Shown one piece after another: positions 17,694 to 31,978 of a stretch of DNA of 61,303 bases (positions are counted from its first letter, which is position 1; every line of letters begins with the position of its first letter). Source of the DNA: Salinivirgaceae bacterium (lineage in GTDB: Bacteria; Bacteroidota; Bacteroidia; Bacteroidales; SZUA-534). Made by a program: the position numbers and the translations under genes. Under the pieces are notes generated by a model. It was not told the origin of the DNA. It did not search any database and was given only the letters and a program-made list of their open reading frames with translations. The DNA lies in NCBI GenBank assembly GCA_024405635.1, contig JAKSOL010000017.1, forward strand, positions 1 to 61,303. Reading direction: 5' to 3'.

Positions 17694-18167
17694 ATGAAAA
17701 AGTTTTTTCTTTCATTGGTTGCCTTTTCAACATTGGCTCTAGTTTTTTGCTCATGTGATAACGAAGAAGAGGATAACAACCCAATAAAAACGGAGCAACA
17801 AAACAACGACTCAACATCATTTGTTGGCCAACTATCTGTTACCTTTCAAGGCAATGATTTTATAACTGACGATACAAAAGTGTCGGCTCTTTTAAAAGGC
17901 AATGCTATTTCGCTTTACTTTTTTGGTGTAAAATTTGTGCCACAAATGCCTGTTACTATTGACCTTGTTGTGGCCGATATTGCTTGTAGCACAACCAACG
18001 GAATAGTTGAATTTCAAGGTGACAAAATTATCCCAACTATGGCAGGTGCTCCATACAAACAATATGTTGCCGAAGACATTAAAGGCACTATAAAAGACGG
18101 CACCATCAACTTTAGCCTGACTTTTGGCGGAATTCCTACTAAGTATAGTGGCGTTGTTGTAAAATAA
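17694..18167 (+). CDS. Lipoprotein, probable calycin-like beta-barrel
   Basis: Lipobox FCSC followed by acidic DNEEED (surface export signal-like). Beta-rich body with VKFVPQMPVTID. Confidence 0.7.
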   Translation: MKKFFLSLVAFSTLALVFCSCDNEEEDNNPIKTEQQNNDSTSFVGQLSVTFQGNDFITDDTKVSALLKGNAISLYFFGVKFVPQMPVTIDLVVADIACSTTNGIVEFQGDKIIPTMAGAPYKQYVAEDIKGTIKDGTINFSLTFGGIPTKYSGVVVK

Positions 18168-18190: not shown

Positions 18191-18223
18191 AAAAGCGCGT
18201 TTCCAAAATGGAAGCGCGCTTTT
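18191..18223. terminator. Bidirectional terminator between convergent genes
   Basis: AAAAGCGCGTTTCCAAAATGGAAGCGCGCTTTT. Confidence 0.85.
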
Positions 18224-18244: not shown

Positions 18245-21200
18245 TTATTTTTTCATACTCTCCATCAGTTGTTGCATTTGCAATTTCATTGCCTCTAGTT
18301 CTTGCTGAAGGGTATTAACTGTGGATTGAAGTTTGTCGCTTTCAGATTTCAAATTGTCGATTACACCTTGTTGCTCTTTAATTGCCTCGATTAGTATTGG
18401 AGTAAATTTTTCATACGATACTGATTTGTAACCATTTTCGTCAGTTGAAACCAATTCGGGATAAATAGCTTCAACCTCTTGTGCTATTACACCAATTTGT
18501 TTTTCGGCATTGAAACAATAGTCAAGGCTATCGGTTGGCACTCCTTTAAGTGCTGCCATTTCCTCGCGCGATTTCCAGTAATAAGTTACACCACGCAATT
18601 TTAGAACATTACCTAGCGACGAACCAAGGGTTTGCACATCTTTCTTAAGTCGTGCATCAGATGATGCTGATGCTGAAGTGTAGGTTAAAGCACCATTAAT
18701 CCTAAGTGTTTTAGCACTAAAATCTCCATAAATAAGTGGTGTTGTTGTGCTTGAATTGGCTATGTAAAGTTTGTTGCTGCCAGTTTCATTATAGCCAGCA
18801 TCGTATCCAATAAATACATTCCTGCTGCCCTGCACAAGGTTTCTACCAGCACCACTGCCAATAAAAGTATTAAAATCACCCGAATTGAATTTATAACCAG
18901 CATAATAGCCAAAGAATGAATTTTGCCTTCCCGTTGCTTTTACATTTTCATCTAATTCATCTGATGTATTACCATTACCTATGCCAAAGCCGGCCATATC
19001 ACCCACAAACACATTTCCTCCTTTATTACTATCAGTTGATTCAGTGTTATTATAATGATAACCAGCTCTCCAACCAATAAACACATTATGCCATGATATA
19101 GTATTCTTGAATCCTGATTCAAGGCCCAACATTGTGTTGTTACTTCCTGTTGTATTATTATAGGCAGCCCTCCAACCCAAGAACACATTGTTTTCTCCTC
19201 TTGTATTTGAGTAGCCTACACTATTTCCTACCGCCACATTATTTTTTCCTGTGGTGTTGCTAAAACCTGATTTATTACCAATCATCACATTGTCAGAACC
19301 TGAAGTATTAAGCCAAGCTACTTTAAAACCAATAGCCACATTTCTTGTTCCTGAAGTGTTGCTATATCCTGCCTCATCACCTATCATCACATTATATTCG
19401 CCACCCATATTTCCTGAACCAGCATAATCTCCAATAAATACATTACTTTGACCTGTTGTTTGTTGTCCCGCTCTACGACCAATAAGAATATTGCATTGTG
19501 AGGATTTTGAAAGCCAACCCGCTTTTTCACCTATAATAACATTGCTAGTTGCTGTCACTATTGATTTTCCGGCATCATTACCCACAATTACATTATCACT
19601 ACCAGCCCAGTTTGAATAACCAGCATTTGTTCCAACAAAAACGTTGTTTTTTCCCGTTTCATTATTAGTTCCAACTTGGTAACCTAAAAACACGTTGTTG
19701 TAACCTGATGTATTAGCTGCACCAGCATTGTTACCCATAAATGAGTTAGCGGTACCGGTTGTGATTTTTTGGCCAGCATCCAAACCAATCAAGTAGTTCT
19801 TTTGGTTAATATCCATATAGCTTTGGTTTGTGCCATCGGCTTTTTTGCCACTAACTGAAAAACCATTTTCGGCCGACTCGTCAGAAACATGAACGCTAGT
19901 GTTGTCTTTGGTAACCATAAACATATCGTTGTCGGTTCCTTTAGCTCCACTGCGACCACGCACTGCAAATGCTGATTTAGCTGCTTTGCTATCGTCGTCA
20001 TCAACGTAAACTGTTGTTTCTTCGGTGTTTACTGCAAGAATATTGTTTTCGCCTTTAGCTCCGCTACGACCACGCACCGCGAATGCCGATTTTGCTGCTT
20101 TACTATCATCGTCATCAACGTAAACTGTTGTAGCTTCGGTATTTACGGCAAGAATATCATTCTCGCCTTTGGCTCCGCTACGACCACGCACCGCGAATGC
20201 CGATTTAGCTGCTTTGCTATCATCGTCATCAACGTAAACTGTTGTAGCTTCGGTATTTACGGCAAAAATGTCATTGTCGCCTTTGGCTCCGCTACGACCA
20301 CGAACTGCGAATGCCGATTTAGCTGCTTTGCTATCGTCGTCATCAACGTAAACTGTTGTAGCTTCGGTATTTACGGCAAAAATGTCATTGTCGCCTTTGG
20401 CTCCGCTACGACCACGCACCGCGAATGCCGATTTTGCTGCTTTACTATCATCGTCATCAACGTAAACGGTTGTTGATTCAGTATTTACGGCAAAAATATC
20501 GTTCTCGCCTTTGGCCCCGCTACGACCGCGCACTGCGAATGCCGATTTTGCTGCTTTGCTGTCGTCATCGTCAACGTAAATGGTTGTCGATTCAGTATTT
20601 ACGGCAAAAATATCGTTCTCACCTTTGGCCCCGCTACGGCCGCGCACTGCGAATGCCGATTTTGCAGCTTTGCCGCCATCTTCGTCAACGTAAACTGTTG
20701 TTCCATCGGTACCAACTGAAAGAATATCGGTTTCGCCTTTGGCTCCGCTGCGACCGCGTACTGCAAATGCCGATTTTGCTGCTTTGCTATCGTCGTCGTT
20801 TGCGTAAACTACTGTTCCTGTTGGATATACAGCAAATACCACGTTGCCTTCTTTGTCTTTTACCTCAAATAGTGCCTCATCGTCGGCGGCGGTTGATGCT
20901 GCCTGAATGCTGGCCGATTTGAATTCTGAAGTTGGGTCTTGCCATTTTGTGCCAGTGCTTGTACTTGTAAGTACTTGGCCGTTAGTACCTTTTGAGTTGG
21001 CATAGTCGTATATAGAACCACGAACTCGCAAGTTGCCATCAATATCAAGTTTTTGAGTAGGGGCAGTTATTCCTATACCTATTCTATTACCACTGTTGTA
21101 TATGGCATCGTTAGCAACCCAAGTAGTGCCATTGTGGCGTAGGGTTTGACCTTTAGTACCTGAAATGTTCATACCATCGTCACCTTTTGGTCCTTTTAGA

Positions 21201-22384
21201 CTACTAGTTGTATATGATGTTCCATTGGTATAATTAATGGTCAATGTTCCGTCGGGATTGCTTACTGTTGACGCTATTCCCACACCTGTTTTTCCTATTT
21301 CACCTTGTGGAGCACTAAACTCAACCCAATTTGATGCATCGTTTTTTGGTTCCACACTCGAAATAAATTCGGTTGCTGACTGTACTATCCACATTGATGA
21401 ATATCCCCCATTGTTTGATGCAAATACATAATCGCCTGGGTTGTATTTTTTTCCGCTTACCCAAGCGCCTTGGTTGGTTAGACCTATACCTGGATCGCCT
21501 TTTGGACCTTTTAAATTACCCGTAGTAAACGAGTTCCCATTGGTATAGTTAATGGTTAATGTTCCGTCGGGATTGTTTACTGTTGATGCTATGCCTACAC
21601 CATCGTTGCCTTTTAGTTCTGTCTTTTGTGCTTCAGTTAAATCGCTAAAGGTTAACGCATCGCCTTTGTCGCCTTTAAGGCTAGGCGTTGTAAACGAGTT
21701 TCCATCGGTATAGTTAATGGTTAATGTCCCGTCGGGATTGTTTACTGTTGATGCTATGCCTACACCATCGTTGCCTTTTAGTTCTGTCTTTTGTGCTTCA
21801 GTTAAATCGCTAAAGGTTAACGCATCGCCTTTGTCGCCTTTAAGGCTAGGCGTTGTAAACGAGTTTCCATCGGTATAGTTAATGGTTAATGTCCCGTCGG
21901 GATTGCTTACTGCTGACGCTATGCCTACACCATCGTTGCCTTTTAGTTCTGCCTTTTGTGCTTCGGTTAAGTCGCTAAAGGTTAATGCATCGCCTTTATT
22001 ACTATTAGCAGCATATAAAGCGTAAGGCACTGCATTTATTTTGGTTTTGCCAAAGTCAACTGCTTTGCCGTCAATGGTTGCCAACACTTTCATCCACACA
22101 TCGTTGCTTGCCCAATCGACATTGGCTAGGCTACTTTCGCCAATAGGTTTGCCTTCGCCTACATTGGCGGTTAAAATGCCGTAATTGTTAGTTGATACTT
22201 CCTGAGTTTCAGAATAATAAACAACAACATCGTTTTTGTCAACCAATGTTATGGTTAAAGGCACTTTGGTTGATTTTAGAACTTCGCCTTTTGCATTGCG
22301 TACCACTGCTTGGTACGAAAAACTTTGAGCGCTGATTTGCATAGCAAATGCTACTGTAATCAGCATTAGGAACATCTTTTTCAT
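18245..22384 (-). CDS. Secreted tail-fibre-like protein A with C-terminal Peptidase S74 intramolecular chaperone
   Basis: Signal peptide (..ISAQ), SYQAVVRN N-domain, collagen-like/55-aa repeats, 8 x 38-aa repeats, NVFxG..AG beta-helix repeats, SDARLKK...GVIAQEVE..YPELV S74 domain and coiled coil. TAGTTTTG -7 box at 22414-22421 supports ATG 22384. Confidence 0.85.
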   Translation of the reverse strand: MKKMFLMLITVAFAMQISAQSFSYQAVVRNAKGEVLKSTKVPLTITLVDKNDVVVYYSETQEVSTNNYGILTANVGEGKPIGESSLANVDWASNDVWMKVLATIDGKAVDFGKTKINAVPYALYAANSNKGDALTFSDLTEAQKAELKGNDGVGIASAVSNPDGTLTINYTDGNSFTTPSLKGDKGDALTFSDLTEAQKTELKGNDGVGIASTVNNPDGTLTINYTDGNSFTTPSLKGDKGDALTFSDLTEAQKTELKGNDGVGIASTVNNPDGTLTINYTNGNSFTTGNLKGPKGDPGIGLTNQGAWVSGKKYNPGDYVFASNNGGYSSMWIVQSATEFISSVEPKNDASNWVEFSAPQGEIGKTGVGIASTVSNPDGTLTINYTNGTSYTTSSLKGPKGDDGMNISGTKGQTLRHNGTTWVANDAIYNSGNRIGIGITAPTQKLDIDGNLRVRGSIYDYANSKGTNGQVLTSTSTGTKWQDPTSEFKSASIQAASTAADDEALFEVKDKEGNVVFAVYPTGTVVYANDDDSKAAKSAFAVRGRSGAKGETDILSVGTDGTTVYVDEDGGKAAKSAFAVRGRSGAKGENDIFAVNTESTTIYVDDDDSKAAKSAFAVRGRSGAKGENDIFAVNTESTTVYVDDDDSKAAKSAFAVRGRSGAKGDNDIFAVNTEATTVYVDDDDSKAAKSAFAVRGRSGAKGDNDIFAVNTEATTVYVDDDDSKAAKSAFAVRGRSGAKGENDILAVNTEATTVYVDDDDSKAAKSAFAVRGRSGAKGENNILAVNTEETTVYVDDDDSKAAKSAFAVRGRSGAKGTDNDMFMVTKDNTSVHVSDESAENGFSVSGKKADGTNQSYMDINQKNYLIGLDAGQKITTGTANSFMGNNAGAANTSGYNNVFLGYQVGTNNETGKNNVFVGTNAGYSNWAGSDNVIVGNDAGKSIVTATSNVIIGEKAGWLSKSSQCNILIGRRAGQQTTGQSNVFIGDYAGSGNMGGEYNVMIGDEAGYSNTSGTRNVAIGFKVAWLNTSGSDNVMIGNKSGFSNTTGKNNVAVGNSVGYSNTRGENNVFLGWRAAYNNTTGSNNTMLGLESGFKNTISWHNVFIGWRAGYHYNNTESTDSNKGGNVFVGDMAGFGIGNGNTSDELDENVKATGRQNSFFGYYAGYKFNSGDFNTFIGSGAGRNLVQGSRNVFIGYDAGYNETGSNKLYIANSSTTTPLIYGDFSAKTLRINGALTYTSASASSDARLKKDVQTLGSSLGNVLKLRGVTYYWKSREEMAALKGVPTDSLDYCFNAEKQIGVIAQEVEAIYPELVSTDENGYKSVSYEKFTPILIEAIKEQQGVIDNLKSESDKLQSTVNTLQQELEAMKLQMQQLMESMKK
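19880..20800 (-). repeat. 8 x 114-bp coding tandem repeat (KAAKSAFAVRGRSGAKG...TTVYVDDDDS)
   Basis: Period of 114 nt measured (GAATGCCGAT at 20081 and 20195). Confidence 0.92.
20526..20926. repeat. About 400-bp direct repeat identical to 30219-30619
   Basis: Manual comparison found no mismatch. Offset is 9693 nt. Confidence 0.88.
21505..21996 (-). repeat. 3 x 165-bp coding tandem repeat (KGDALTFSDLTEAQK.ELKGNDGVGIAS..NPDGTLTINYT..)
   Basis: GTTAA(C/T)GCAT recurs at 21651, 21816 and 21981. A partial fourth unit lies near 21180-21290. Confidence 0.92.
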
Positions 22385-22555
22385 AATTGAATATCGTTTG
22401 TTGATTGTAATCACAAAACTAATTGTTTTTTCATATAATTAAGTAAACAAATAATTAATAAAGAGAACCCATTATGAGCGTACATTTTCAACCTCTTGCG
22501 TAATTACGCCTATGTGATTGTCATTGTTAATCAATACCAATATAGGTAGGTGGGC

Positions 22556-22588
22556 AAAAAAACCGAAGACAAATTACCCTTCGGCTTT
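22556..22588 (-). terminator. Terminator after the GLUG gene
   Basis: Minus strand reads AGCCGAAG...CTTCGGTTTTTTT. Confidence 0.7.
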
Positions 22589-22615
22589 GCTTTTTATCAA
22601 TTTAGTTGTGGCTCA

Positions 22616-25600
22616 TTACAAAACCACCACCCTTGTTACTTCTGAACCTATCCGAACTACATACACACCAGGACTTACACTTATTTGCCGGTCGGTGCCA
22701 GAATAAACCTCTACTCCCGACATGTTAAAAATATGGCATTCCGAAGTTGTTCCTTCTATTATGATAGTTGACTTTTGCGAATAGACATATCCATGTGTTT
22801 TTTCATAAACATTGGTTTCATCTTTGGCAAAGATGGCAATTAGATTCATGTCATTAACAGCCTCAATGGTTCTTTCCAAATCAGTAACTCCATCGCTCCA
22901 GCCAACAAATGTTGCACTTTTATTAGGTTGTGCCGAAATCAACACTTTTGATCCGTAATCATACAAACCGCTTCCTATGCCTAATCCATTGTCAGCCTCT
23001 ACAATAATTGCCACAGACTCTTCGCCCGATTTTGAACCATCATTCATATAATAAGCATAAAGCGTGGCATCCGAATTGAGTTCAGAAGACAGCTGCATCC
23101 GTTTTCCATAGCCATTAGGCTGGGTATACCAAAGACTAATCTTTCCCTCAGATTCTAACTGAGGTAACGTAATGTTACCACTATTGGCATATACCACCGA
23201 TTCATAATTGTTAGCCTCATCAATCAATGTCAGTTTGTAAACAACATCGCCATACAATTTAGGGGATACATCGGTTCCTATTGTTTGACGCCATACAACA
23301 TTGTTTGAGCTGTTTGATTTATTCAACAAGTAGCATACCTCGCCACTAGCAAAGTCAGCACTAGGCTTTCCAAACAAAAATTCGCCCTCGCCAATTCCCC
23401 AACGAAGGCCTTGCATTGATGTCAATTCATTATTGTAGAAGCAATTGTCAATAACATTTTCACCAATTCCAACTACAGCTCCATTATAGCCTCCTTGGTC
23501 GAATAACCTGCCATTTACATAGCAATTATACAGAGTTGACTGTTCACCCAATTCTCCCACTATTCCACCAGTCCTATCTGAACCGCCTTCTTTGCTGTTT
23601 AGTGAGTAACAATCGGCAATAGAGCTAGATACAGTTTCTCCACAAATACAACTCACGCTAATACCGAAACCATATACAAATGATGACTCAACGTAGCACT
23701 TGTTTATGCTTGAATTGAAAGAGAATCCGCACAGAGCTGCAATTTTTTCATTTGCAACAAATACAGAGTTCTTTACCCCTACATTTTTAATAGAGGCACC
23801 TCTAGTGCGACCAAACAAACCTACAAATGGTTGAGAAGTGTTGTTAAAGAACAATCCTGACACGAAGTGTCCCTGACCATCGAAAGTGCCAGAATAATCG
23901 ACAACTGCACTTCCGTCTTGGCAACCAATTGGAGTCCAAGCTACAGGATTGTCGTTATTTATTCCTACAAAATCACCACTCCAATAATTATATTGAGCGC
24001 CACAAGGATCGCCATTGCTGTAAAACAAATCATCGTTAACAAACACATCGGCCACAAGCCTACCATTGATGGTTGGGTCGGTTGAATTGACCATCTCAGC
24101 AAAACTGTATAATTGTCCCATGTTTGCAATATCATACCATTCAGTTCCTTCTTCAACAACTGGCACTACAGGCTGATATGTGTTGCAATAGGAGCAAATA
24201 CCATTTACATAATTGTGCTCACCCACAACAAGACCTTCATCAACATTCGAATAATGAGCACCATCATCCATGTTTTCGCAATGTATGCTACCGCATTTAT
24301 ATACAATGTTTCCTGCAAATGATGGATAAGAATCCGTTTCTAAGTTTTGTCGCCATACCACATCTGGGCTACTGCTTTTTTCATTTAGTTTATAGCAAGC
24401 CTCGCCATTTTTAAATAATTCCATCGGTAGCCCATACACCTGTCCTGGTTTGTCGGGCTCTCTTACGTTGTCGGGGATAGCCCCAATGTAGTAATAGCAA
24501 CGTTGAACAGAAGCTAATGATGAGCCAAAAATCGCACCATAATTGAACACGCCTGTAACCTCGCCTATTGAGTAGCAATTTTTAAGTATAGCAGACTTTT
24601 CGTTTTTACCACAAACTCCACCTACCTTTGAGTGCCCAACTATTTTAGACAAGTTGAATGACTTTTCTATAGTGCCAAAGTTTACTGCGCAAATTCCGCC
24701 AGCCGACTCCATCTGCACATCCACCATGCCATTATTGAAGCACTGCGAAACCGTTTCTAAATTGTTGCCACAGATACCGCCTGCCCCATATACACAATCA
24801 ACCTTGCCTACGTTTGATGAGTTTGTAATAGTGCCACTATTGTTACCGCATATGCCGCCACCAATTCCAATTTGCGCCTTTACTGTGGCTTTATTTGTAC
24901 AACCTGCAATTGTGCCACCATTGTTGAAGCCACATATGCCACCAACCATGCTTTGACCATTGATGTAGGAATTAGACAATGTTAGGTTTTTGATGGTTGC
25001 ACCACTGACATTTCCAAAAAGGCCAGCAAGATCCAACTGGCTGTCGTTTAGATACAAACCGCTGATTGTATGACCATTACCATCGAACATACCTTTATAG
25101 GCAACCCAAAGACCATTGTAGAATCCTATTGGCTCCCACCGACGCAGCGAAGCACTGTCTGCTACCAAATTGCCTTCTTGGTCAAGCACTTGACTGTTTA
25201 TTGTAATGTCATTTGTCAATCGGCCATTGATTGCTGGAGAATCAGTATTTGCCTTATGCGCGAACCAGTATAGTTGCCCGGCATTAACTATATCGTACCA
25301 CACAACACCGTCTTCCTCAACTGGGGTAATAGATTGCAACTCTCCGCAATAATCACAAAAGCCATTGGTAAAATTATGATTTCCCGTTGTCAATCCTTGT
25401 TGTGTATTGCTGTATACTAACGATAGAATATCGTTTGAACAACGACGAGCTCCACTGGCATATATGGTAAGACCCGATGCGGTTGGCGACAAATGAGTAT
25501 TGTTAGACAAGGTTTGTCCCCATGCATTCATGCCGTTTCCTTCATTAAGAAGAAAACATACCTCTCCACTTTTGAACTGCGAAGTTGTTTTTCCAACAAC

Positions 25601-28408
25601 ATCTATTCCTAATGTTTGACCATGTACTCCATTATCTACCAAATCGGTATTGTAAAAACAATTGTCATAATTGGACGATAACGAATATCCGCACAAGCTT
25701 GCCGCATATATATCGCCATCAACAACAGCAGTACTATAGCAATTTTGGAAATTTGCATTTTTCGACATACCACAAAGACCTCCTACATAGCATTTACCCT
25801 TAAAGAAACTATTGGTCACACCTATATTTCTAAGAGTTCCCTCGCAACTTGCAAACATACCAACATAGTATTTATTGCTATTTACATACAAGCCTGATAT
25901 GGTATGGCATTGGCCATCAAAAACACCCGAGTAACTGTTTGTAAGACTCTCACCAAGTATTGGTGTCCAATCTTTTAGTCCTTGCAAAACAGCGCCATCG
26001 GCGCCAAACACCTGCGAGTTATAAACAATGTCAGCTGTCAGCTTTGCATTCAAATCGTTTCTTCCCGAATTTACTTCGTTAGCAAACCAAAGCAGTTGAC
26101 CAATTGTTGCTATTGTATACCATGTGGTATCATTAGCTACAACAGTTGGCGCTGATTTATACTCTCCACAAACTGTACATATTCCATCGGCACCAAAACT
26201 ATGAGAATACGATGTTGACACTATTGGGCTGTTAGAATAGCGACGTTTACACGAACCGCTAAAGCCAGAATAAACCACTTGACCAGAAGCCTGTGGATAG
26301 GCCTGCGAAACAAGAGTTTGATGCCATACATTGTCAACAGAACCTTGCTTGCCATTTAGCAGATAGCATGCCTCGCCACTTGCAAAGCTTGACGAAGCCA
26401 ACCCTTCTACTTGTCCAAGTTCATCGCACTCGTCAATTCCTTTGGTTGAACAAATAAATTGATCATAATAGCAATTGGCTATTGACGAAGCCATGTTGGT
26501 ACCAATCATTGAGCCAACGTGTTTTATTCCGGAAACTCTTGCTAAAGAGTAACAACTTGTGATGGTGTTATTCATCATGCTGTTTCCACATATGGCACCA
26601 ACATAAAATCGTCCCTTAAAGTAAGAGTCAACAACACCAACATTTTTAATTGTTGCGCCATACGCCAATCCTACCAATCCTGCATAGTTATCAATGCTCT
26701 CATTTTGATACAATCCACTAATAACATACCCCTGTCCATCAAAGATACCGCTATAATATACCTTATTGGGGCCATGTTTTTTTGTTCTCTCTCCGCCTAT
26801 AGGATTCCAGGTACGGAATGTTTCAGTACTGGGAGAGTGGTTATCAATGCTGTTTAATACATTCGGGTTTATTGTAACATTAGATACCAAACGTCCATTT
26901 AGCGCGCTATTGCCATTGAAAATGGTGTCTGAGAACCAATACAATTGGCCTGCATTTGAAATCTCGTACCATTCTGCACCATTATCGACAACTTTACTTG
27001 CTGGTTCAAATGCATTGCAAATACTGCAAAAACCATTGTGGTAATCATGGGGTAAAGCTGGTATTCTTAAATCGTACAATGTGCAAACTTGTTTGTCATC
27101 GTTTAAGTAGGCACCACACACTAGGCATCGATAGTGAGACTTCATTCCATACGTGCAAGTTGGAGCCAATTCGTCCTTATGTTGCAAATAATCATGAGTG
27201 CGGCAGTTCATATAACAACCGTTATAGAAATAAACCTTTTCACCATTAAAGACTGGAGCCTCTTGCTTACCATCGCCAGACAAGTTTTGTCCCCACTGGA
27301 TAGTATTCTGCTCGCTACTATTTAACAAATGACATAAATAACCATTGTTGAACTGTGCTTGAGTGAGCCCTACCAAACGACTAACATTCCAATCTACTCC
27401 AACTGAATCATTAAAATCAGAATTATAGTAACAAGTATCAATATAAGCGGCACCAATTTTACCAAACAAACCGCCGTACGCTACTTTAATATTTTCTATC
27501 TTAGGATAACTAAAACAAGCATACACGCGTTTACAATCTTCTACATATCCTATAACACCACCCACATTCTCACTGCCCGCAACATTGCCAATATTATATG
27601 AATTCAATATGTAATTGGTCCAATATGTCACACCTGCCACTCCACCTACGTTTTTTGTTCCTTGTATATTGCCTTCGTTATAAGAATTAGCTATGTCGGT
27701 GTCGTAGTCGGAATATCCACAGATACCACCAACTGTCTCTTTCCCTACTACTTTGGCATAATTTACACAATTTATTAAATGTGCACCGTTGTAAATATGG
27801 CCCGCCACTCCTCCTACGTTAATCTCTCCCTCAACAAGACCATTAAAAGAGCAATGTCTTAACTCCCGGGCAAAAATATATCCGGCAATGCCGCCAACAT
27901 CTTCCTTGCCCCGAACATAACTATCGACAAAATGCAATGAGTCAACAGCACTATTAGATCCAAGAATTTTAAAAAAACCATTTTTGGTGTTATCATTATT
28001 TAGATACATACCATAAATAGTATGTCCTCCTCCATGAAAATTCTCATTAAACTGCTCAATGGATAGGCACTTCTTCAAGTTTGAAGTATCTGATGTCAGT
28101 GTGCCATCGGCATTCAGCACATTGGCATTGAGTTGAATATCATCCATCAAATAGAAATTACAGCCAATTCCATAATTTTGATGATCGTTCAGAAACTCAA
28201 TCATTCCCATCAACTCAGCTCCCGTATATATGTAATAGCTAGTATATATATCACCAAACTTGCTACCATCTATCGTTCCATCCCACACATCAAGAGCCTT
28301 CACCTTGTTGTTTGGTGCGATGCATAGCAGCAACATGAACGAAAGCAATACTGATTTCGCACTAGGGATCATTTTTCGACATTTTATTCCAAGATGCTTG
28401 CTATTCAT
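22616..28408 (-). CDS. Large secreted GLUG-motif repeat protein with Cys-rich linkers, InlB-B-like repeats and a probable T9SS C-terminal sorting domain
   Basis: Signal peptide; five modules, four starting W-Y-x-I-xxx-GQL; VGGICG/GLUG motifs; FVGWSDG repeat; C-terminus IFNMSG...PGVYVVRIG. Confidence 0.8.
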   Translation of the reverse strand: MNSKHLGIKCRKMIPSAKSVLLSFMLLLCIAPNNKVKALDVWDGTIDGSKFGDIYTSYYIYTGAELMGMIEFLNDHQNYGIGCNFYLMDDIQLNANVLNADGTLTSDTSNLKKCLSIEQFNENFHGGGHTIYGMYLNNDNTKNGFFKILGSNSAVDSLHFVDSYVRGKEDVGGIAGYIFARELRHCSFNGLVEGEINVGGVAGHIYNGAHLINCVNYAKVVGKETVGGICGYSDYDTDIANSYNEGNIQGTKNVGGVAGVTYWTNYILNSYNIGNVAGSENVGGVIGYVEDCKRVYACFSYPKIENIKVAYGGLFGKIGAAYIDTCYYNSDFNDSVGVDWNVSRLVGLTQAQFNNGYLCHLLNSSEQNTIQWGQNLSGDGKQEAPVFNGEKVYFYNGCYMNCRTHDYLQHKDELAPTCTYGMKSHYRCLVCGAYLNDDKQVCTLYDLRIPALPHDYHNGFCSICNAFEPASKVVDNGAEWYEISNAGQLYWFSDTIFNGNSALNGRLVSNVTINPNVLNSIDNHSPSTETFRTWNPIGGERTKKHGPNKVYYSGIFDGQGYVISGLYQNESIDNYAGLVGLAYGATIKNVGVVDSYFKGRFYVGAICGNSMMNNTITSCYSLARVSGIKHVGSMIGTNMASSIANCYYDQFICSTKGIDECDELGQVEGLASSSFASGEACYLLNGKQGSVDNVWHQTLVSQAYPQASGQVVYSGFSGSCKRRYSNSPIVSTSYSHSFGADGICTVCGEYKSAPTVVANDTTWYTIATIGQLLWFANEVNSGRNDLNAKLTADIVYNSQVFGADGAVLQGLKDWTPILGESLTNSYSGVFDGQCHTISGLYVNSNKYYVGMFASCEGTLRNIGVTNSFFKGKCYVGGLCGMSKNANFQNCYSTAVVDGDIYAASLCGYSLSSNYDNCFYNTDLVDNGVHGQTLGIDVVGKTTSQFKSGEVCFLLNEGNGMNAWGQTLSNNTHLSPTASGLTIYASGARRCSNDILSLVYSNTQQGLTTGNHNFTNGFCDYCGELQSITPVEEDGVVWYDIVNAGQLYWFAHKANTDSPAINGRLTNDITINSQVLDQEGNLVADSASLRRWEPIGFYNGLWVAYKGMFDGNGHTISGLYLNDSQLDLAGLFGNVSGATIKNLTLSNSYINGQSMVGGICGFNNGGTIAGCTNKATVKAQIGIGGGICGNNSGTITNSSNVGKVDCVYGAGGICGNNLETVSQCFNNGMVDVQMESAGGICAVNFGTIEKSFNLSKIVGHSKVGGVCGKNEKSAILKNCYSIGEVTGVFNYGAIFGSSLASVQRCYYYIGAIPDNVREPDKPGQVYGLPMELFKNGEACYKLNEKSSSPDVVWRQNLETDSYPSFAGNIVYKCGSIHCENMDDGAHYSNVDEGLVVGEHNYVNGICSYCNTYQPVVPVVEEGTEWYDIANMGQLYSFAEMVNSTDPTINGRLVADVFVNDDLFYSNGDPCGAQYNYWSGDFVGINNDNPVAWTPIGCQDGSAVVDYSGTFDGQGHFVSGLFFNNTSQPFVGLFGRTRGASIKNVGVKNSVFVANEKIAALCGFSFNSSINKCYVESSFVYGFGISVSCICGETVSSSIADCYSLNSKEGGSDRTGGIVGELGEQSTLYNCYVNGRLFDQGGYNGAVVGIGENVIDNCFYNNELTSMQGLRWGIGEGEFLFGKPSADFASGEVCYLLNKSNSSNNVVWRQTIGTDVSPKLYGDVVYKLTLIDEANNYESVVYANSGNITLPQLESEGKISLWYTQPNGYGKRMQLSSELNSDATLYAYYMNDGSKSGEESVAIIVEADNGLGIGSGLYDYGSKVLISAQPNKSATFVGWSDGVTDLERTIEAVNDMNLIAIFAKDETNVYEKTHGYVYSQKSTIIIEGTTSECHIFNMSGVEVYSGTDRQISVSPGVYVVRIGSEVTRVVVL

Positions 28409-28438
28409 GATTCAATTGTTTACAGATTTATCACCGAC

Positions 28439-31093
28439 CTATTTGTTCATTAACATCTCCACCAACTTCTTCAACTCATCAATCTGCTTTTGTTGTTCTT
28501 TAATTGCCTCTATTAGTACAGGTGTAAGTTTTGTGTAGTCAACAGTTTTGTAGCCGTAAACATCTGTTCCAACCAACTCTGGGAATACCTTTTCAACTTC
28601 TTGTGCAATAACACCTATTTGGGTGTCTTGGTTTGTGCAATAGTGGTAGGTAGTGTTGCCTTCCGAATCAGATTGGGTTGCGTTAGCAAGTTGTTCCATT
28701 TCATCTTTCGACTTCCAATTGTAAGTAACACCGGTTATCTGCATCAACTTGTAAAGAGGATTGTCTATTGCGACGATATTTTTCTTTAGGTTAATGTCTG
28801 AGTTTTGTGTCAAAGTACCATTTATGTTTACCGTGCTTCCATATAAGTCACCAGTAATAAGGTTACCAATGAACAATTTGCCATTGCCTTTGATTCCATA
28901 TCCAGCCTGGTTTCCTATGCAGATGTTGTCGCTACCATCACTTCCAGAATATCGACCAATGGCAATATTTTGCGATCCTGTTGCATTGTCACCACCCGAT
29001 TGGAATCCTAAGTAAATGTTGTCATCTCCATTGCTGTTATATCCTGATCTATAACCCAACATTACATTGTTTGCGCCTGTTTTGTTGGCATAGCCACTCT
29101 CGCTTCCTAAAATTACGTTATAGCCTCCCGTTGTATTTTCAATGCCAGACCTATATCCCAAGAAAACATTTGATCCACCGATTGTGTTGTTTCTACCGCA
29201 TAATTCACCAATAAAGACATTGTCGCCACCTTGGGTGTTGTTATTTCCTGCAGAGTATCCCATGAATATGTTATACTCGCCAGTTGTATTTTTCTCACCG
29301 CAATGGTCACCAATAAAAACATTGCAGTTTCCAATACTATTCTTTCCGGTATATGTACCAATAAACACATTGCTTTCTCCGCTAACATTGGAATAACCTG
29401 ATTGACTACCAACGAAAACGTTCCATCGACCATTCTTGTTATTAAAACCTGACTGGTTACCCATAAACACATTCTCATAACCATTACTGTTACTATAGCC
29501 AGATTGGTTGCCAAAAAAGATGTTTTGGTATCCAGATGTGTTCATGTTGCCTGCTTTGTTTCCTATGATAACATTTTCGTTTCCAGTAGTATTTTCTGCA
29601 CCTGCACGGTTTCCAATAAATGTGTTGTTTATACCACCATCTAGTTTTGCGCCCGCCTCGTAACCAATCACATAGTTATCAGCGGTAATGTTCATATATC
29701 CTGAATTAGACATAGCTCCCTTTTCCTCAACAAAGAATCCACTTTTCCCTTCGTCATCTCCTTTTCCTTCAACACCAAATCCACTCTTGCTCGAGCTCCC
29801 GTCAACATAAACATGTGTGCTCTCTTTGGTAACTACCATCACCTGATTGTTGCCATTATCTTTGGCACCGCTGCGGCCTCGCACTGCAAAAGCCGATTTA
29901 GCTGCTTTGCCACTTTCATCGTCAACGTAAACAGTTGTTTCGTCGGTGTTTACTGCAAGAATGTTGTTCTCGCCTTTGGCTCCGCTACGACCACGCACTG
30001 CGAATGCCGATTTTGCTGCTTTGCTGTCGTCGTCATCAACGTAAACGGTTGTAGCGTCAGTATTTACGGCTAAAATATCGTTCTCGCCTTTGGCTCCGCT
30101 ACGACCACGCACTGCGAATGCCGATTTTGCTGCTTTGCTATCATCGTCATCAACGTAAACGGTTGTTGATTCGGTATTTACGGCAAAAATATCGTTCTCG
30201 CCTTTGGCTCCGCTACGGCCGCGCACTGCGAATGCCGATTTTGCTGCTTTGCTGTCGTCATCGTCAACGTAAATGGTTGTCGATTCAGTATTTACGGCAA
30301 AAATATCGTTCTCACCTTTGGCCCCGCTACGGCCGCGCACTGCGAATGCCGATTTTGCAGCTTTGCCGCCATCTTCGTCAACGTAAACTGTTGTTCCATC
30401 GGTACCAACTGAAAGAATATCGGTTTCGCCTTTGGCTCCGCTGCGACCGCGTACTGCAAATGCCGATTTTGCTGCTTTGCTATCGTCGTCGTTTGCGTAA
30501 ACTACTGTTCCTGTTGGATATACAGCAAATACCACGTTGCCTTCTTTGTCTTTTACCTCAAATAGTGCCTCATCGTCGGCGGCGGTTGATGCTGCCTGAA
30601 TGCTGGCCGATTTGAATTCAACGTTGTCGCCGCGCTCAGTTTTTAGTTCCATAAGTTGTTCGGGGGTAAAATCTTCGTATTTGAAAGCTTCACCCTTGTC
30701 GCCTTTTTTGCCATTAACAGCATACAATGCATAAGGTACTGCGTTTATTTTGGCTTTGCCAAAGTCAAATGGTTGACCGTCAACGGTGGCCGACACTTTC
30801 ATCCACACATCGTTGCTTGCCCAATCAACGTCGGCAAGAGTTTTTCCGTTGGTTGATGTCCCTTCGCCAATATTTGCAGTAAAAACACCATAGTTATTAG
30901 TTTTAACTGTCTGACTTTCTGTATAATAGGTTATTGCATCGTTTCTATCAACCAATGATATGGTTAGCGGAATATTGGTTGTTTTAACAACCTCGCCTTT
31001 TGCGTTGCGTACTACGGCTTGATACGAAAAACTTTGGGCGCTTACATAGTGAGCAAATGTTGCTATTATCAGCAATAAGGATATTTTTTTCAT
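28439..31093 (-). CDS. Secreted tail-fibre-like protein B with C-terminal Peptidase S74 chaperone
   Basis: Paralog of protein A: signal peptide (..VSAQ), SYQAVVRN domain, 6 x 38-aa repeats, NVFxG beta-helix repeats and SDINLKK...GVIAQEVEKVFPELV. TACTTTTG -7 box at 31118-31125 supports ATG 31093. Confidence 0.85.
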   Translation of the reverse strand: MKKISLLLIIATFAHYVSAQSFSYQAVVRNAKGEVVKTTNIPLTISLVDRNDAITYYTESQTVKTNNYGVFTANIGEGTSTNGKTLADVDWASNDVWMKVSATVDGQPFDFGKAKINAVPYALYAVNGKKGDKGEAFKYEDFTPEQLMELKTERGDNVEFKSASIQAASTAADDEALFEVKDKEGNVVFAVYPTGTVVYANDDDSKAAKSAFAVRGRSGAKGETDILSVGTDGTTVYVDEDGGKAAKSAFAVRGRSGAKGENDIFAVNTESTTIYVDDDDSKAAKSAFAVRGRSGAKGENDIFAVNTESTTVYVDDDDSKAAKSAFAVRGRSGAKGENDILAVNTDATTVYVDDDDSKAAKSAFAVRGRSGAKGENNILAVNTDETTVYVDDESGKAAKSAFAVRGRSGAKDNGNNQVMVVTKESTHVYVDGSSSKSGFGVEGKGDDEGKSGFFVEEKGAMSNSGYMNITADNYVIGYEAGAKLDGGINNTFIGNRAGAENTTGNENVIIGNKAGNMNTSGYQNIFFGNQSGYSNSNGYENVFMGNQSGFNNKNGRWNVFVGSQSGYSNVSGESNVFIGTYTGKNSIGNCNVFIGDHCGEKNTTGEYNIFMGYSAGNNNTQGGDNVFIGELCGRNNTIGGSNVFLGYRSGIENTTGGYNVILGSESGYANKTGANNVMLGYRSGYNSNGDDNIYLGFQSGGDNATGSQNIAIGRYSGSDGSDNICIGNQAGYGIKGNGKLFIGNLITGDLYGSTVNINGTLTQNSDINLKKNIVAIDNPLYKLMQITGVTYNWKSKDEMEQLANATQSDSEGNTTYHYCTNQDTQIGVIAQEVEKVFPELVGTDVYGYKTVDYTKLTPVLIEAIKEQQKQIDELKKLVEMLMNK
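29795..30490 (-). repeat. 6 x 114-bp coding tandem repeat (same family as 19880-20800)
   Basis: Six KAAKSAFAVRGRSGAK units in the translation. Confidence 0.9.
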
Positions 31094-31143
31094 AAAAAAC
31101 TTGTGTTTATTATGTGACAAAAGTAATATAATCAACTATAATC

Positions 31144-31174
31144 AAAAAAGCCTAAGCAAAAGCTTAGGCTTTTT
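31144..31174. terminator. Rho-independent terminator
   Basis: AAAAAAGCCTAAGCAAAAGCTTAGGCTTTTT. Confidence 0.85.
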
Positions 31175-31288
31175 AGGTGTTGTTTTGGTAACTTTATGAT
31201 TGAAATGAACAACTGTCATAGCGCCATCACTTTATAAACCCAAAAACAGCACTCAACATTTGAGTTTTAGACATTGCAATTTTCATTT

Positions 31289-31978
31289 TTACTTGTTGTT
31301 TACTTGCTCTCTATAATTTTCGAGTTGAATTTTAATAGTTTCTAACTCTTGTTGCAAAGCATCAACCATTTGACGCATTTTTTCTCTCTCTTCGTTTATT
31401 GAGTTAATGTTGCTCTGTAATATAGCGTTGTCGGTTTGGAATCTTTCAATCTGCTGTTTAAGGTTTTCATTTCCCGATTCAACACGACTTACCTGCATCA
31501 CAATATCACCATTAAACGTTCTAAACCTTTCTATTTGTCTGTTGAGTTTATCATTTTCTGATTTAACTTCTTCAACCTCTTTTTGTAAATTATCTTTCTC
31601 GGTTTTTAGTTCCTTAATAGCTTCAATAAGAATTGGTGTTAGGTTTTCGTATGATACCAACTTATATCCTTTGTCATTGGTAATGACCAATTCTGGATAA
31701 ATCTTTTCTACATCTTGAGCTATAAGCCCTATATGCTTTTGGTCGTCAAATTTCTGGTCAGGAAAGTCTTTTACTCGCCAGTAGTAAGTAACACCATTAA
31801 GTTTTAGTACATTTTCTAGAGCATCTTTAAGTGGTTTAATGCTCTTTTTGTAGCGTTTGTCGGAAAACTGATATGTTCCGCAAATGGCATCGTTTAAATC
31901 AATTGAAAGACTTTGAGCCTCGAGTTGTAGTACTAATGCCGATAGAAACAATAAAAGCGATATTTTTTTCATATTCAT
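31289..31978 (-). CDS. Signal peptide + near stand-alone Peptidase S74 domain + long coiled coil
   Basis: ..LEAQ signal peptide; SDKRYKKSI only 17 residues later; GVTYYW and GLIAQDVEKIYPELV; heptad-rich tail of about 110 aa. Confidence 0.85.
   Translation of the reverse strand: MNMKKISLLLFLSALVLQLEAQSLSIDLNDAICGTYQFSDKRYKKSIKPLKDALENVLKLNGVTYYWRVKDFPDQKFDDQKHIGLIAQDVEKIYPELVITNDKGYKLVSYENLTPILIEAIKELKTEKDNLQKEVEEVKSENDKLNRQIERFRTFNGDIVMQVSRVESGNENLKQQIERFQTDNAILQSNINSINEEREKMRQMVDALQQELETIKIQLENYREQVNNK

Follow-up and report, generated by a model that had tools for sequence, protein, structure and literature searches.

Four co-oriented ORFs between positions 18245 and 31978 of the minus strand of a Salinivirgaceae contig (Table 1) encode a fibre protein (fibre A), a GLUG-repeat protein, a second fibre protein (fibre B) and a 229-aa protein with an S74 domain and a coiled coil. 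This locus raises the question whether such fibre genes belong to a phage or to the cell and, if they belong to the cell, by which route the fibres would reach the surface. The initial annotation of the window, by which we mean the whole analysed stretch of 61,303 nucleotides, had proposed a candidate non-phage surface-fibre assembly system in which a T9SS-exported protein, such as the GLUG protein, could serve as partner of the fibres.

Domain organization of the S74 proteins

Fibre A is organized in the order signal peptide, base N-domain, three repeats starting with GDALTFSDLTEAQK at a spacing of 55 aa, stalk repeats, beta-helix repeats, S74 domain and coiled-coil tail. Fibre B follows the same plan, but has six stalk repeats. 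The beta-helix repeats of both fibres are of an NxxxG type that resembles YadA_head-type repeats. The N-termini of all three S74 proteins, read by eye, are hydrophobic and end in A-Q-S, and no Cys lipobox was seen in them. Searches with Pfam and NCBIfam profiles (including TIGR04183 and PF18962) gave no match to a T9SS CTD in fibre A, fibre B or the 229-aa protein, and the same profile collections identified no autotransporter or C-terminal YadA-type anchor family in the fibres. These profile searches and the putative signal peptides bear out the description of the fibres as Sec-type secreted proteins that have a C-terminal S74 domain and lack a CTD of their own.

Table 1. Positions of genes, domains and hairpins at the fibre locus (window coordinates).
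Feature	Position	Strand	Remarks
Terminator-like hairpin	18191..18223		palindromic, 15 pairs; just past fibre A stop
Fibre A ORF	18245..22414	-	1389 aa from GTG; likelier start is ATG at 22384
Fibre A S74 intramolecular chaperone	18449..18661	-	predicted cut before Ser1252 (codon 18659-18661)
Fibre A stalk	19937..20785	-	eight 38-aa repeats with KAAKSAFAVRGRSGAK core; 95% DNA identity with fibre B over 760 bp
Fibre A base N-domain	22007..22327	-	107 aa, MAT_N-like; NF053851 E 1.4e-8, 34.8 bits (cut-off 60); AF2 pLDDT 92.1
GLUG-repeat protein	22616..28408	-	1930 aa; neighbour of the fibre genes, probable T9SS cargo
GLUG protein, divergent CTD-like tail	22628..22765	-	TIGR04183 18.7 bits (cut-off 23); own-genome CTD HMM 20.1 bits
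Fibre B ORF	28439..31135	-	898 aa from TTG; likelier start is ATG at 31093
Fibre B S74 domain	28571..28801	-	Ser779 (codon 28799-28801)
Fibre B base N-domain	30716..31036	-	NF053851 E 1.6e-7, 31.3 bits; alignment with fibre A domain
Terminator-like hairpin	31145..31174		palindrome of 13 pairs flanked by A/T runs; separates fibre B from the 229-aa gene
229-aa protein	31289..31978	-	signal peptide, 17 residues, S74 (SDKRYKK), coiled coil of ~110 aa

The Peptidase_S74 domain (PF13884) was recognized in three ORFs of the window with 57, 58.7 and 68.6 bits (E-values 2.5e-15, 6.8e-16 and 5.7e-19), above the Pfam cut-off of 22. The Ser-Lys motif SDxxxK is present as SDARLKK in fibre A (Ser1252), as SDINLKK in fibre B (Ser779) and as SDKRYKK in the 229-aa protein (Ser39). 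The predicted cleavage of fibre A before Ser1252 would free a C-terminal piece of 138 aa. The C-terminal region of fibre A, the sole one searched, matches the solved phage long tail fibre 6f45 (E 2.2e-5), and its SDxxxK motif region aligns with SSDxRxKK of that structure.

The 229-aa protein had been taken for a stand-alone chaperone. This role was not borne out, as a single full-length relative was present among 39 matches and a terminator-like hairpin lies between its gene and fibre B. We rejected the option that the protein arose from fibre B by a recent deletion because its S74 domain is only 41% identical to that of fibre B.

The N-domain common to the two fibres starts with QSFSYQAVVRN and is 71% identical over 107 aa. 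The domain recurs in nine paralogues as their conserved base. An AF2 model of the fibre A base is a six-strand beta-sandwich, for which a fold search returned no close PDB relative and only generic Ig-like sandwiches (best E 0.01, TM ≤ 0.47).

The base-domain family and its genomic context

The NCBIfam profile NF053851 (Bdello_MAT_N), the N-domain model of the mosaic adhesive trimer (MAT) fibres of Bdellovibrio, matches nine places in the genome (best E 1.8e-9; 47.7 bits for the best paralogue). All matches are sub-threshold (25-48 bits against a cut-off of 60) and span model positions 2-80 of 162. A C-terminal S74 domain is present in four of the nine base-domain paralogues and absent from the other five, and the tips of these genes include collagen and YadA_head repeats, the latter in paralogue C13a (PF05658, E 1.8e-51). 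A Fibrobacter-type domain, considered for the tips of the C1 paralogues, was dropped since NCBIfam gave no such match. The paralogues are mosaic: fibres A and B share 95% identity across 760 bp of the stalk but 77% in the base, and the S74 end of fibre A is 97.6% identical to that of paralogue C13b across 454 bp. At C13, the same genome has another two fibre genes in tandem, and the nine paralogues are dispersed and set among housekeeping genes. Far from standing alone, fibres A and B belong to a family of nine paralogues, and to call the window locus an assembly system was an overstatement.

In a sample of 401 genomes from the phylum, 89 carried the base domain. The family comprises 27,724 cluster representatives and has no Pfam model, and thus constitutes a large, unnamed family of secreted proteins. 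Almost every one of the best 150 cluster representatives has the domain at residues ~23-135, and S74 was found in 27 of 91 3'-complete ORFs of related loci. T9SS was scored across the phylum by CTD counts. The alternative marker GldM (TIGR03517) failed outside the genome's own class and was dropped because genomes with no GldM match hold 51-150 CTD proteins. Base domains occurred in 89 of 313 CTD-bearing genomes and in 0 of 88 genomes lacking a CTD, a comparison that rests on essentially one clade (f25).

No ORF among the 33 other window ORFs of at least 150 aa fell into the PHROGs categories head/packaging, tail, integration or lysis, and at 48 related loci none of the 127 flanking proteins matched a phage hallmark Pfam family. 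Capsid, terminase, portal, tail tube, baseplate, integrase and lysis genes were thus absent from both sets, which bears out the earlier view that the locus is not of phage type; it is chromosomal. Base-domain loci were also rare in viral contigs: four confirmed loci were present in IMG/VR (three of them with an adjoining CTD ORF) versus at least 579 in genome_contigs. The fibre genes might still be leftover tail-fibre genes of a decayed prophage or tailocin, with no cellular role, as the fibres are similar to tail-fibre and tailspike families of PHROGs in their distal halves and S74 regions, and the S74 region resembles 6f45. This origin is hardly credible, however, for intact ORFs that encode putative signal peptides and a base domain not of phage type, that have no phage genes around them in the window or in the 48 related loci, and that belong to a dispersed set of paralogues amid housekeeping genes. 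The size of the family, the constant position of its domain and the rarity of base-domain loci in viral contigs argue against it as well.

Candidate partners of the fibres

The start of the GLUG gene 30 bp after the stop of fibre B was confirmed by the ORF coordinates (28439 versus 28408), and a terminator-like site was looked for at this junction and not found. RNA libraries from two metatranscriptome runs of two studies contain contigs that match segments of the GLUG gene and segments within the 3' half of fibre B at 99% identity or more, but no contig bridges the junction. These matches indicate presence in RNA libraries only, with DNA carry-over possible, and are no proof of transcription.

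The 1930-aa protein contains the GLUG motif (Pfam, E 3.8e-13). Its earlier label as T9SS-type stood in part: the tail remains below the TIGR04183 cut-off and its last 120 aa gave no Pfam CTD at E ≤ 10, but it matched an HMM built from the CTDs of this genome and could be aligned to the C-terminal end of paralogue C8:31368-36788 (domain E 3.5e-15). Because the CTD of this paralogue passes the cut-off, the tail probably works as a CTD, and the GLUG protein is probably T9SS cargo.

According to the initial annotation, the fibres would dock by their N-domain onto the T9SS-exported GLUG protein, and the four genes would form one assembly system. The short junction and the CTD-like tail agree with this, as do larger CTD proteins (404-735 aa) encoded directly after the fibre gene in some other genomes. 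However, the latter start with the adaptor module that is described below, and no such module was detected in the GLUG protein (module HMM at E ≤ 10; only C32 matched in the genome). Searches with phmmer (E ≤ 1e-5) gave 0 GLUG homologues among the ORFs of 107 other fibre loci, none of the three large GLUG paralogues in the genome lies beside fibre genes, and the C13 tandem pair has no GLUG gene. Docking onto the GLUG protein is therefore very improbable, and the protein would be an ordinary T9SS cargo that by chance sits between two fibre genes.

A survey of the neighbourhood of base-domain fibres for CTD-bearing proteins identified a different conserved neighbour, a protein of ~165 aa which consists of a 45-aa module and a T9SS CTD. 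A small CTD ORF lies directly upstream of most base-domain ORFs (25 of 30) in loci L023-L051 and of fewer (19 of 103) in loci L052-L129, and TIGR04183 confirmed the CTD in all five ORFs tested. In the genome-wide search of the 401 genomes, 77 of 101 module matches preceded a base domain on the same strand by no more than 1 kb (53 of 77 with the 24 training rows set aside), and another 13 lay on the opposite side of a fibre gene at a distance of up to 8 kb. Counted from the base domain, 65 of the 141 matches listed for other genomes had no module within 1 kb upstream. Base domain and module were both present in 66 genomes, the base domain only in 23, the module only in 5 and neither in 307; nine of ten re-examined genomes with the base domain only have a CTD ORF beside the fibre gene. 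Named isolates that carry the fibre or the pair include Chitinophaga and Flavobacterium species. A CTD within the base-domain ORF itself was found once in 153 ORFs, and a natural fusion of module and base in none of them. Other T9SS genes also occur beside fibres, namely PorV in L089 and PorP/SprF in L098. A T9SS-exported partner, the way out that had been suggested for the fibres, is reasonable.

The genome encodes a T9SS (GldM 361 bits; 33 CTD matches above cut-off). Its single module gene (C32:10358-10846) lies outside the window, on contig C32, beside a paralogue lacking S74, and a module plus CTD gene beside the fibres on the same strand was not found in the window. An adaptor gene is absent next to eight of the nine fibre genes, including both window fibres, so that all nine would need to share a single adaptor. 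A 1:1 complex prediction of the fibre A base (99-row alignment) with the module (41-row alignment), run with no controls, reached scores of 0.07 and 0.09, where the mark is 0.32.

The base could also act independently of the T9SS, by binding the outer membrane or LPS directly or by leaving on vesicles, with the small CTD protein being separate and co-regulated. Bdellovibrio is not known to possess a T9SS. Since this bacterium displays MAT fibres on its surface, with a base partner given as unknown in the Discussion of the paper (PMC10769870), the base need not depend on a T9SS. The fibre genes here that have no adjacent adaptor, and the 23 of 89 base-positive genomes with no module match in the genome-wide search, fit this explanation too. 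The pairing of fibre and adaptor genes is, however, tight, strand-conserved and spread across classes of the phylum; the CTD neighbours in re-examined module-negative genomes and the PorV and PorP/SprF genes beside fibres likewise make independence from the T9SS rather unlikely.

We estimate a probability of roughly 60% that fibres A and B are MAT-like surface fibres of a nine-gene family which are exported or anchored by means of a T9SS tag provided in trans by an adaptor. Each fibre would be exported by Sec, after which the C-terminal S74 chaperone would drive trimerisation of the stalk and beta-helix and then cleave itself off before the Ser of SDxxxK. As the C-terminus would thereby be discarded, the fibre could not carry a T9SS tag of its own. 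The conserved N-terminal beta-sandwich would be the base by which the fibre is attached to the cell, and the ligand that the variable distal part may bind is probably a glycan of another cell or of a particle. The ~165-aa adaptor, with its 45-aa module and type A CTD, would bind the base and either carry the fibre through the T9SS pathway or tie it to that pathway; here it would be the product of C32:10358-10846. Domains, family, mosaicism, gene pairing and co-occurrence were observed here, whereas trimerisation, cleavage, surface location and binding by the adaptor are inferred, and the part of the adaptor could be export or anchoring. More tentatively, the T9SS may export or anchor trimeric fibres that lack a CTD through a small, dedicated adaptor which holds on to their base and supplies the CTD in trans, one adaptor for nine fibres. 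The best lead to the surface route of the fibres is in any case the tiny secretion-tagged partner encoded elsewhere in the genome and not the GLUG gene.

If the small T9SS-tagged protein is the missing base partner, the anchor of the fibres has been named. A tag in trans would solve the loss of the C-terminus in S74 fibres and would amount to a piggy-back use of the T9SS, which was not found in the literature searched. No report of a separate small protein carrying the T9SS tag for a fibre was found there, including the T9SS passages of a review (PMC9251779), nor of a small T9SS-tagged partner for MATs, including passages of another review (PMC12428579). A single adaptor and nine fibres with different tips would make up a plug-in display platform, and a simple handle to display or remove whole adhesin sets in gut and environmental Bacteroidota. 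For the window alone the gain is smaller: its genes are correctly named and the GLUG link is removed.

Comparison with known systems

Fibres A and B share the Ser-Lys motif, a helical tail after it and beta-helix repeats before it with S74 phage tailspikes and tail fibres (K1F endosialidase, T5 pb1, 6f45). Unlike phage tail fibres, they have a signal for secretion and a base domain of cellular type in place of the virion-attachment N-terminus, and no phage genes surround them. Similarity to YadA-family trimeric autotransporter adhesins is found in the YadA_head-type repeats of C13a and the similar repeats of fibres A and B, whereas the fibre C-terminus is an S74 chaperone and no membrane anchor. 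As with type A cargo of the T9SS and with type B SprB-SprF (PorP/SprF barrel), these are large repetitive, putative surface proteins of Bacteroidota that would depend on a CTD and on dedicated partner genes alongside. In contrast to such cargo the fibre has no CTD, and a second, small protein would carry the tag.

The MAT fibres of Bdellovibrio bacteriovorus were described in 2024 as prey-handling adhesins of this predator (Caulton et al.; PMC10769870). They comprise 13 S74 and 8 non-S74 proteins, all with a beta-rich domain of ~130 aa after the signal peptide, and the paper reports no close PDB match for the MAT base; its supplementary Table S3 has five "FCB group" MATs, including a Salinivirga protein (PMC10769870). 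The fibres described here resemble the S74 subgroup of MATs (e.g., Bd3182; PMC10769870) in their signal peptide, conserved beta-rich base, long repetitive stalk, swappable tip and S74 domain with SDxxxK motif, and they likewise form a multi-gene family of mosaic paralogues with S74 and non-S74 members. They differ in that their base domain scores under the NF053851 family cut-off and in that the host is no predator but a Bacteroidota bacterium of the animal gut with a T9SS. Unlike the described MATs, fibre genes in this phylum are usually paired with a gene for a small T9SS-tagged protein.

Gene content of the fibre locus

The window contains four co-oriented ORFs, fibre A, the GLUG protein, fibre B and a 229-aa protein. 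Peptidase_S74 (Pfam) was found in fibre A, fibre B and the 229-aa protein (E 2.5e-15, 6.8e-16 and 5.7e-19, respectively) and the GLUG motif in the 1930-aa protein (Pfam, E 3.8e-13). All three S74 domains carry a motif of the catalytic type [SDARLKK with Ser1252 (fibre A), SDINLKK with Ser779 (fibre B) and SDKRYKK with Ser39 (229-aa protein)], and their proteins start, as judged by eye, with a hydrophobic leader that ends in A-Q-S and has no lipobox cysteine. Signal peptidase I substrates of Bacteroidota typically have Q at position +1. PHROGs assigned no head, tail, integration or lysis category to any of the window's 33 other ORFs, and the flanks consist of housekeeping genes (TonB receptor, AraC regulator, GH127, GH31, PAP2, EptA and M3 peptidase). 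The gene content proposed in the initial annotation, three co-oriented S74 genes with a GLUG gene and no phage genes, was thus borne out. Judged from its sequence, the hairpin downstream of fibre A is likely a two-way terminator. The window also encodes a 687-aa protein with a type IX secretion system (T9SS) C-terminal sorting domain (CTD), a further T9SS cargo with no relation to the fibres. The stretch is present in animal-gut metagenomes from several studies, and metatranscriptome contigs (two runs, two studies) are at least 99% identical to parts of it, indicating presence in RNA libraries rather than proving transcription.

Coordinates of the features discussed, in the window and elsewhere
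Feature	Location	Strand	Remarks
Calycin-like gene	window 17694-18167		convergent with fibre A
Palindromic hairpin	window 18191-18223	.	15 pairs; A/T runs on both sides; between fibre A and calycin-like gene
Fibre A	window 18245-22414	-	1389 aa
GLUG protein	window 22616-28408	-	1930 aa
Fibre B	window 28439-31135	-	898 aa
Palindromic hairpin	window 31145-31174		13 pairs; between fibre B and 229-aa gene
229-aa protein	window 31289-31978	-	ORF
687-aa ORF	window 50472-52535	-	CTD at 50496-50702, 39.3 bits, above cut-off
Small S74 + CTD proteins	C33:121846-122862, C16:46455-47519, C17:23826-24887		338-354 aa
Partial copies of the same	C30:2-850, C30:10022-10915
Peptidase_C25 protein	C33:122867-124972 (L018:5868-7973)		701 aa; GCX_COOH tail
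Split fibre gene (probable)	C14:2-2917	-	leaves contig end
Split fibre gene (probable)	C13:3-2600	+	leaves contig end
Non-S74 fibre paralogues	C1:136665-140465, C1:142674-145187
Adaptor of the same genome	C32:10358-10846		162 aa; Por_Secre_tail E 6.3e-16
Non-S74 fibre	C32:10859-12565		starts 12 bp after adaptor gene
PorV-family gene	L089:8346-9512		directly upstream of Chitinophaga fibre gene
CHU_C/SprB protein and PorP/SprF gene	L098:11751-13386		directly downstream of fibre gene

The GLUG protein had been described as T9SS-type and as a possible partner of the fibres. The first of these is the least secure part of the described gene content: the tail of the protein scored 18.7 bits with TIGR04183 (cut-off 23) and no CTD was recognized in it by Pfam. 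With an HMM built from the CTDs of its own genome it scored 20.1 bits, and it aligned (domain E 3.5e-15) to the C-terminal end of a paralogue with a CTD above the cut-off. The partnership was not confirmed: a phmmer search (E ≤ 1e-5) detected no GLUG homologue in the ORFs of 107 loci with the conserved N-terminal domain of the fibre family (base domain), the paralogues on contigs C27, C8 and C1 (those on C8 and C1 with passing CTDs) lie away from fibre genes, and the second tandem fibre pair of this genome, on C13, has no GLUG-type gene between its members. The GLUG protein is therefore probably a T9SS cargo which simply lies between two paralogous fibre genes. Its gene starts 30 bp after the stop codon of fibre B, no terminator-like site was found in this gap, and the two are possibly co-transcribed.

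The signal peptide of the 229-aa protein shares 12 of 23 residues with that of fibre B and is followed by 17 residues, an S74 domain (41% identity to that of fibre B) and a coiled coil of ~110 aa. Proteins of 125-401 aa gave 39 matches, of which one is related over its full length (73% identity); in the others the alignment is confined to the S74 part, and four of the 39 carry S74 and a T9SS CTD. A hairpin parts the gene from fibre B. The proposed role as a stand-alone chaperone found no support. Possibly the protein is a minimal version of the small S74 + CTD proteins encoded elsewhere in the genome. In those, the signal peptide is followed by a short stretch resembling the fibres, then by S74, a linker rich in Asn and Gly, and a T9SS CTD, which thus comes after the S74. 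Should S74 cleave there, it would remove the proteins' own export tag. On C33, a Peptidase_C25 gene starts 4 bp after one of them.

A mosaic fibre family and the distribution of its base domain

In fibre A (E 1.4e-8) and fibre B (E 1.6e-7), the ~80 residues that follow the signal peptide matched NF053851, the NCBIfam model for the N-terminal domain of the mosaic adhesive trimer (MAT) fibres of Bdellovibrio, with scores that fall short of its cut-off of 60 bits. The model matched at nine places in the genome, and all nine ORFs are organized as signal peptide, base domain, repetitive stalk and variable end. The base domains are 105-108 aa long, start with QSFSYQAVVRN and end with VPYALYA. Four paralogues (fibre A, fibre B, C13b and the C14/C13 gene) end in beta-helix repeats and S74, and five (C13c, C3, C1a, C1b and C32) have other ends. 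Both C14/C13 ORFs run off their contigs within the same 38-aa stalk repeats; the assembly has probably split a single fibre gene, which would encode ~1,840 aa with the base, collagen and YadA_head repeats, and S74. At the DNA level the paralogues are mosaic: fibres A and B show 95% identity across 760 bp of their stalk repeats and 77% in the base, and the S74 end of fibre A is shared with C13b at 97.6% identity over 454 bp. The two paralogues on C1, between which a ThiC gene lies, are nearly identical in the first ~330 residues and differ in their distal parts.

Of 401 genomes sampled from the phylum, 89 (in 48 of 180 genera) gave matches to base-domain profile A1; the seven genomes of the same order and those of family f25 (0/87) gave none. 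At least 579 of at least 621 pattern matches in GTDB-representative contigs were confirmed as base-domain loci; the closest among the matches listed (46-51% identity) are from ruminant-gut MAGs labelled Salinivirgaceae or uncultured Bacteroidetes. Among 1.84 billion cluster representatives, profile A3 found 27,724 proteins at E ≤ 0.001 (9,888 at E ≤ 1e-30), and in nearly all of the best 150 of the 27,724 the domain occupies residues ~23-135. In one 916-aa representative (P0041) six stretches match, so a tandem array is also possible. Homologues do not reside mainly in prophages, the situation that the initial annotation had named as a refutation: only four loci were confirmed in 2.9 million viral contigs, three with an adjoining CTD ORF, and none of 127 proteins flanking base-domain genes (48 loci) is a member of any phage hallmark family. 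The base domain is confined to genomes with CTDs (89/313 vs 0/88), a comparison of little weight as the 88 are essentially one family. The GldM model TIGR03517 matched 99 of 100 genomes of the same class and only one of ~300 others of the phylum; all five checked genomes without a match contain 51-150 CTD proteins, and the model, or the first-pass search with it, misses distant PorM/GldM.

A small CTD protein encoded next to fibre genes

A 173-aa CTD ORF directly upstream of a base-domain gene was first seen in two genomes of the phylum, and the C32 gene pair of the genome studied here is arranged likewise. Counting same-strand CTD ORFs of <260 aa located -60 to +300 bp upstream, such an ORF precedes 25 of 30 base-domain ORFs in loci L023-L051, in which 29 genomes are each represented by their best locus, and 19 of 103 in loci L052-L129, which were ranked by similarity to fibre A. 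These small proteins, here called adaptors, start with a signal peptide and a common module of ~45 aa (alignment A2, 41 rows) which no known family covers; a linker then leads to a type A CTD (35-53 bits with TIGR04183 in all five tested).

Searched genome-wide in the same 401 genomes, the module gave 101 matches in 71 genomes. Most (77) lie on the same strand within 1 kb upstream of a base-domain match, 13 beyond the opposite end of a fibre gene at a distance of up to 8 kb, three 1-8 kb upstream and eight near no base domain; without the 24 training rows, the first class holds 53 of 77. Base and module co-occur in 66 genomes; the base stands alone in 23 and the module in five (weak scores or contig edges), and 307 lack both. 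Re-examination of 20 loci from 10 base-only genomes revealed a CTD ORF in the surrounding 6 kb at 15; in 13 cases it immediately adjoins the fibre gene and shares its strand. A CTD neighbour is present in nine of the 10 genomes. Eight loci's neighbours match the module HMM (E ≤ 0.1); some of the neighbours are larger (404-735 aa) or downstream, yet still start with the module. Among 153 base-domain ORFs, one has its own CTD and none is fused to the module. T9SS-related genes other than adaptors adjoin the fibre genes of L089 and L098 (see table).

In the genome studied here the C32 gene is the sole match to the module HMM, also when hits up to E ≤ 10 are admitted, and the base domains are 30-93% identical to that of fibre A. 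One adaptor would thus have to serve nine fibres, a real weakness. A second is that Bdellovibrio, which is not known to have a T9SS, displays MATs all the same. We regard the link between adaptor and fibres as tentative, slightly less probable than its opposite.

Proposed route to the surface and comparison with Bdellovibrio fibres

The analysis establishes the domain content, the family, its mosaicism, and the pairing and co-occurrence with a small T9SS-tagged protein; the route from here on is inferred. The fibres would be exported by Sec, and S74 would nucleate trimerisation in the periplasm. Self-cleavage before Ser1252 (fibre A) or Ser779 (fibre B) would shed pieces of 138 and 120 aa, and the fibre would be exposed on the surface, held by its base. 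As a fibre so cleaved cannot retain a C-terminal tag, and T9SS is the known route for large folded proteins in this phylum, the adaptor may provide the sorting domain in trans, either for passage through the translocon or for anchoring outside only. In the literature covered, which includes few subscription journals, and in passages of the reviews PMC9251779 and PMC12428579, we found no report that connects fibres of the MAT type to T9SS, and none of piggy-back export through T9SS.

According to PMC10769870, the Bdellovibrio family comprises 21 MATs, 13 with S74 and eight without, all with a beta-rich domain, conserved and ~130 aa long, after the signal peptide, the partner of this base being unknown. 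As five MATs of the 'FCB group', including Salinivirga, Kordia and Dokdonia, already appear in its Supplementary Table S3, Bacteroidota members have been noted in print, though not studied. The base-domain AF2 model (99-row alignment; pLDDT 92.1, pTM 0.83) is a six-strand beta-sandwich with no close match in the PDB (best E 0.01, TM ≤ 0.47), and a lack of structural homologues is likewise remarked there for the MAT base. The fibres described here have the architecture of the Bdellovibrio family, with S74 and non-S74 members, and a base domain that matches the MAT model below its cut-off. We conclude that fibres A and B are probably MAT-like surface fibres (probability about 0.85). As fibres they add new members to a kind that has been known since 2024, and the unusual part of the finding is their pairing with a module + CTD protein.
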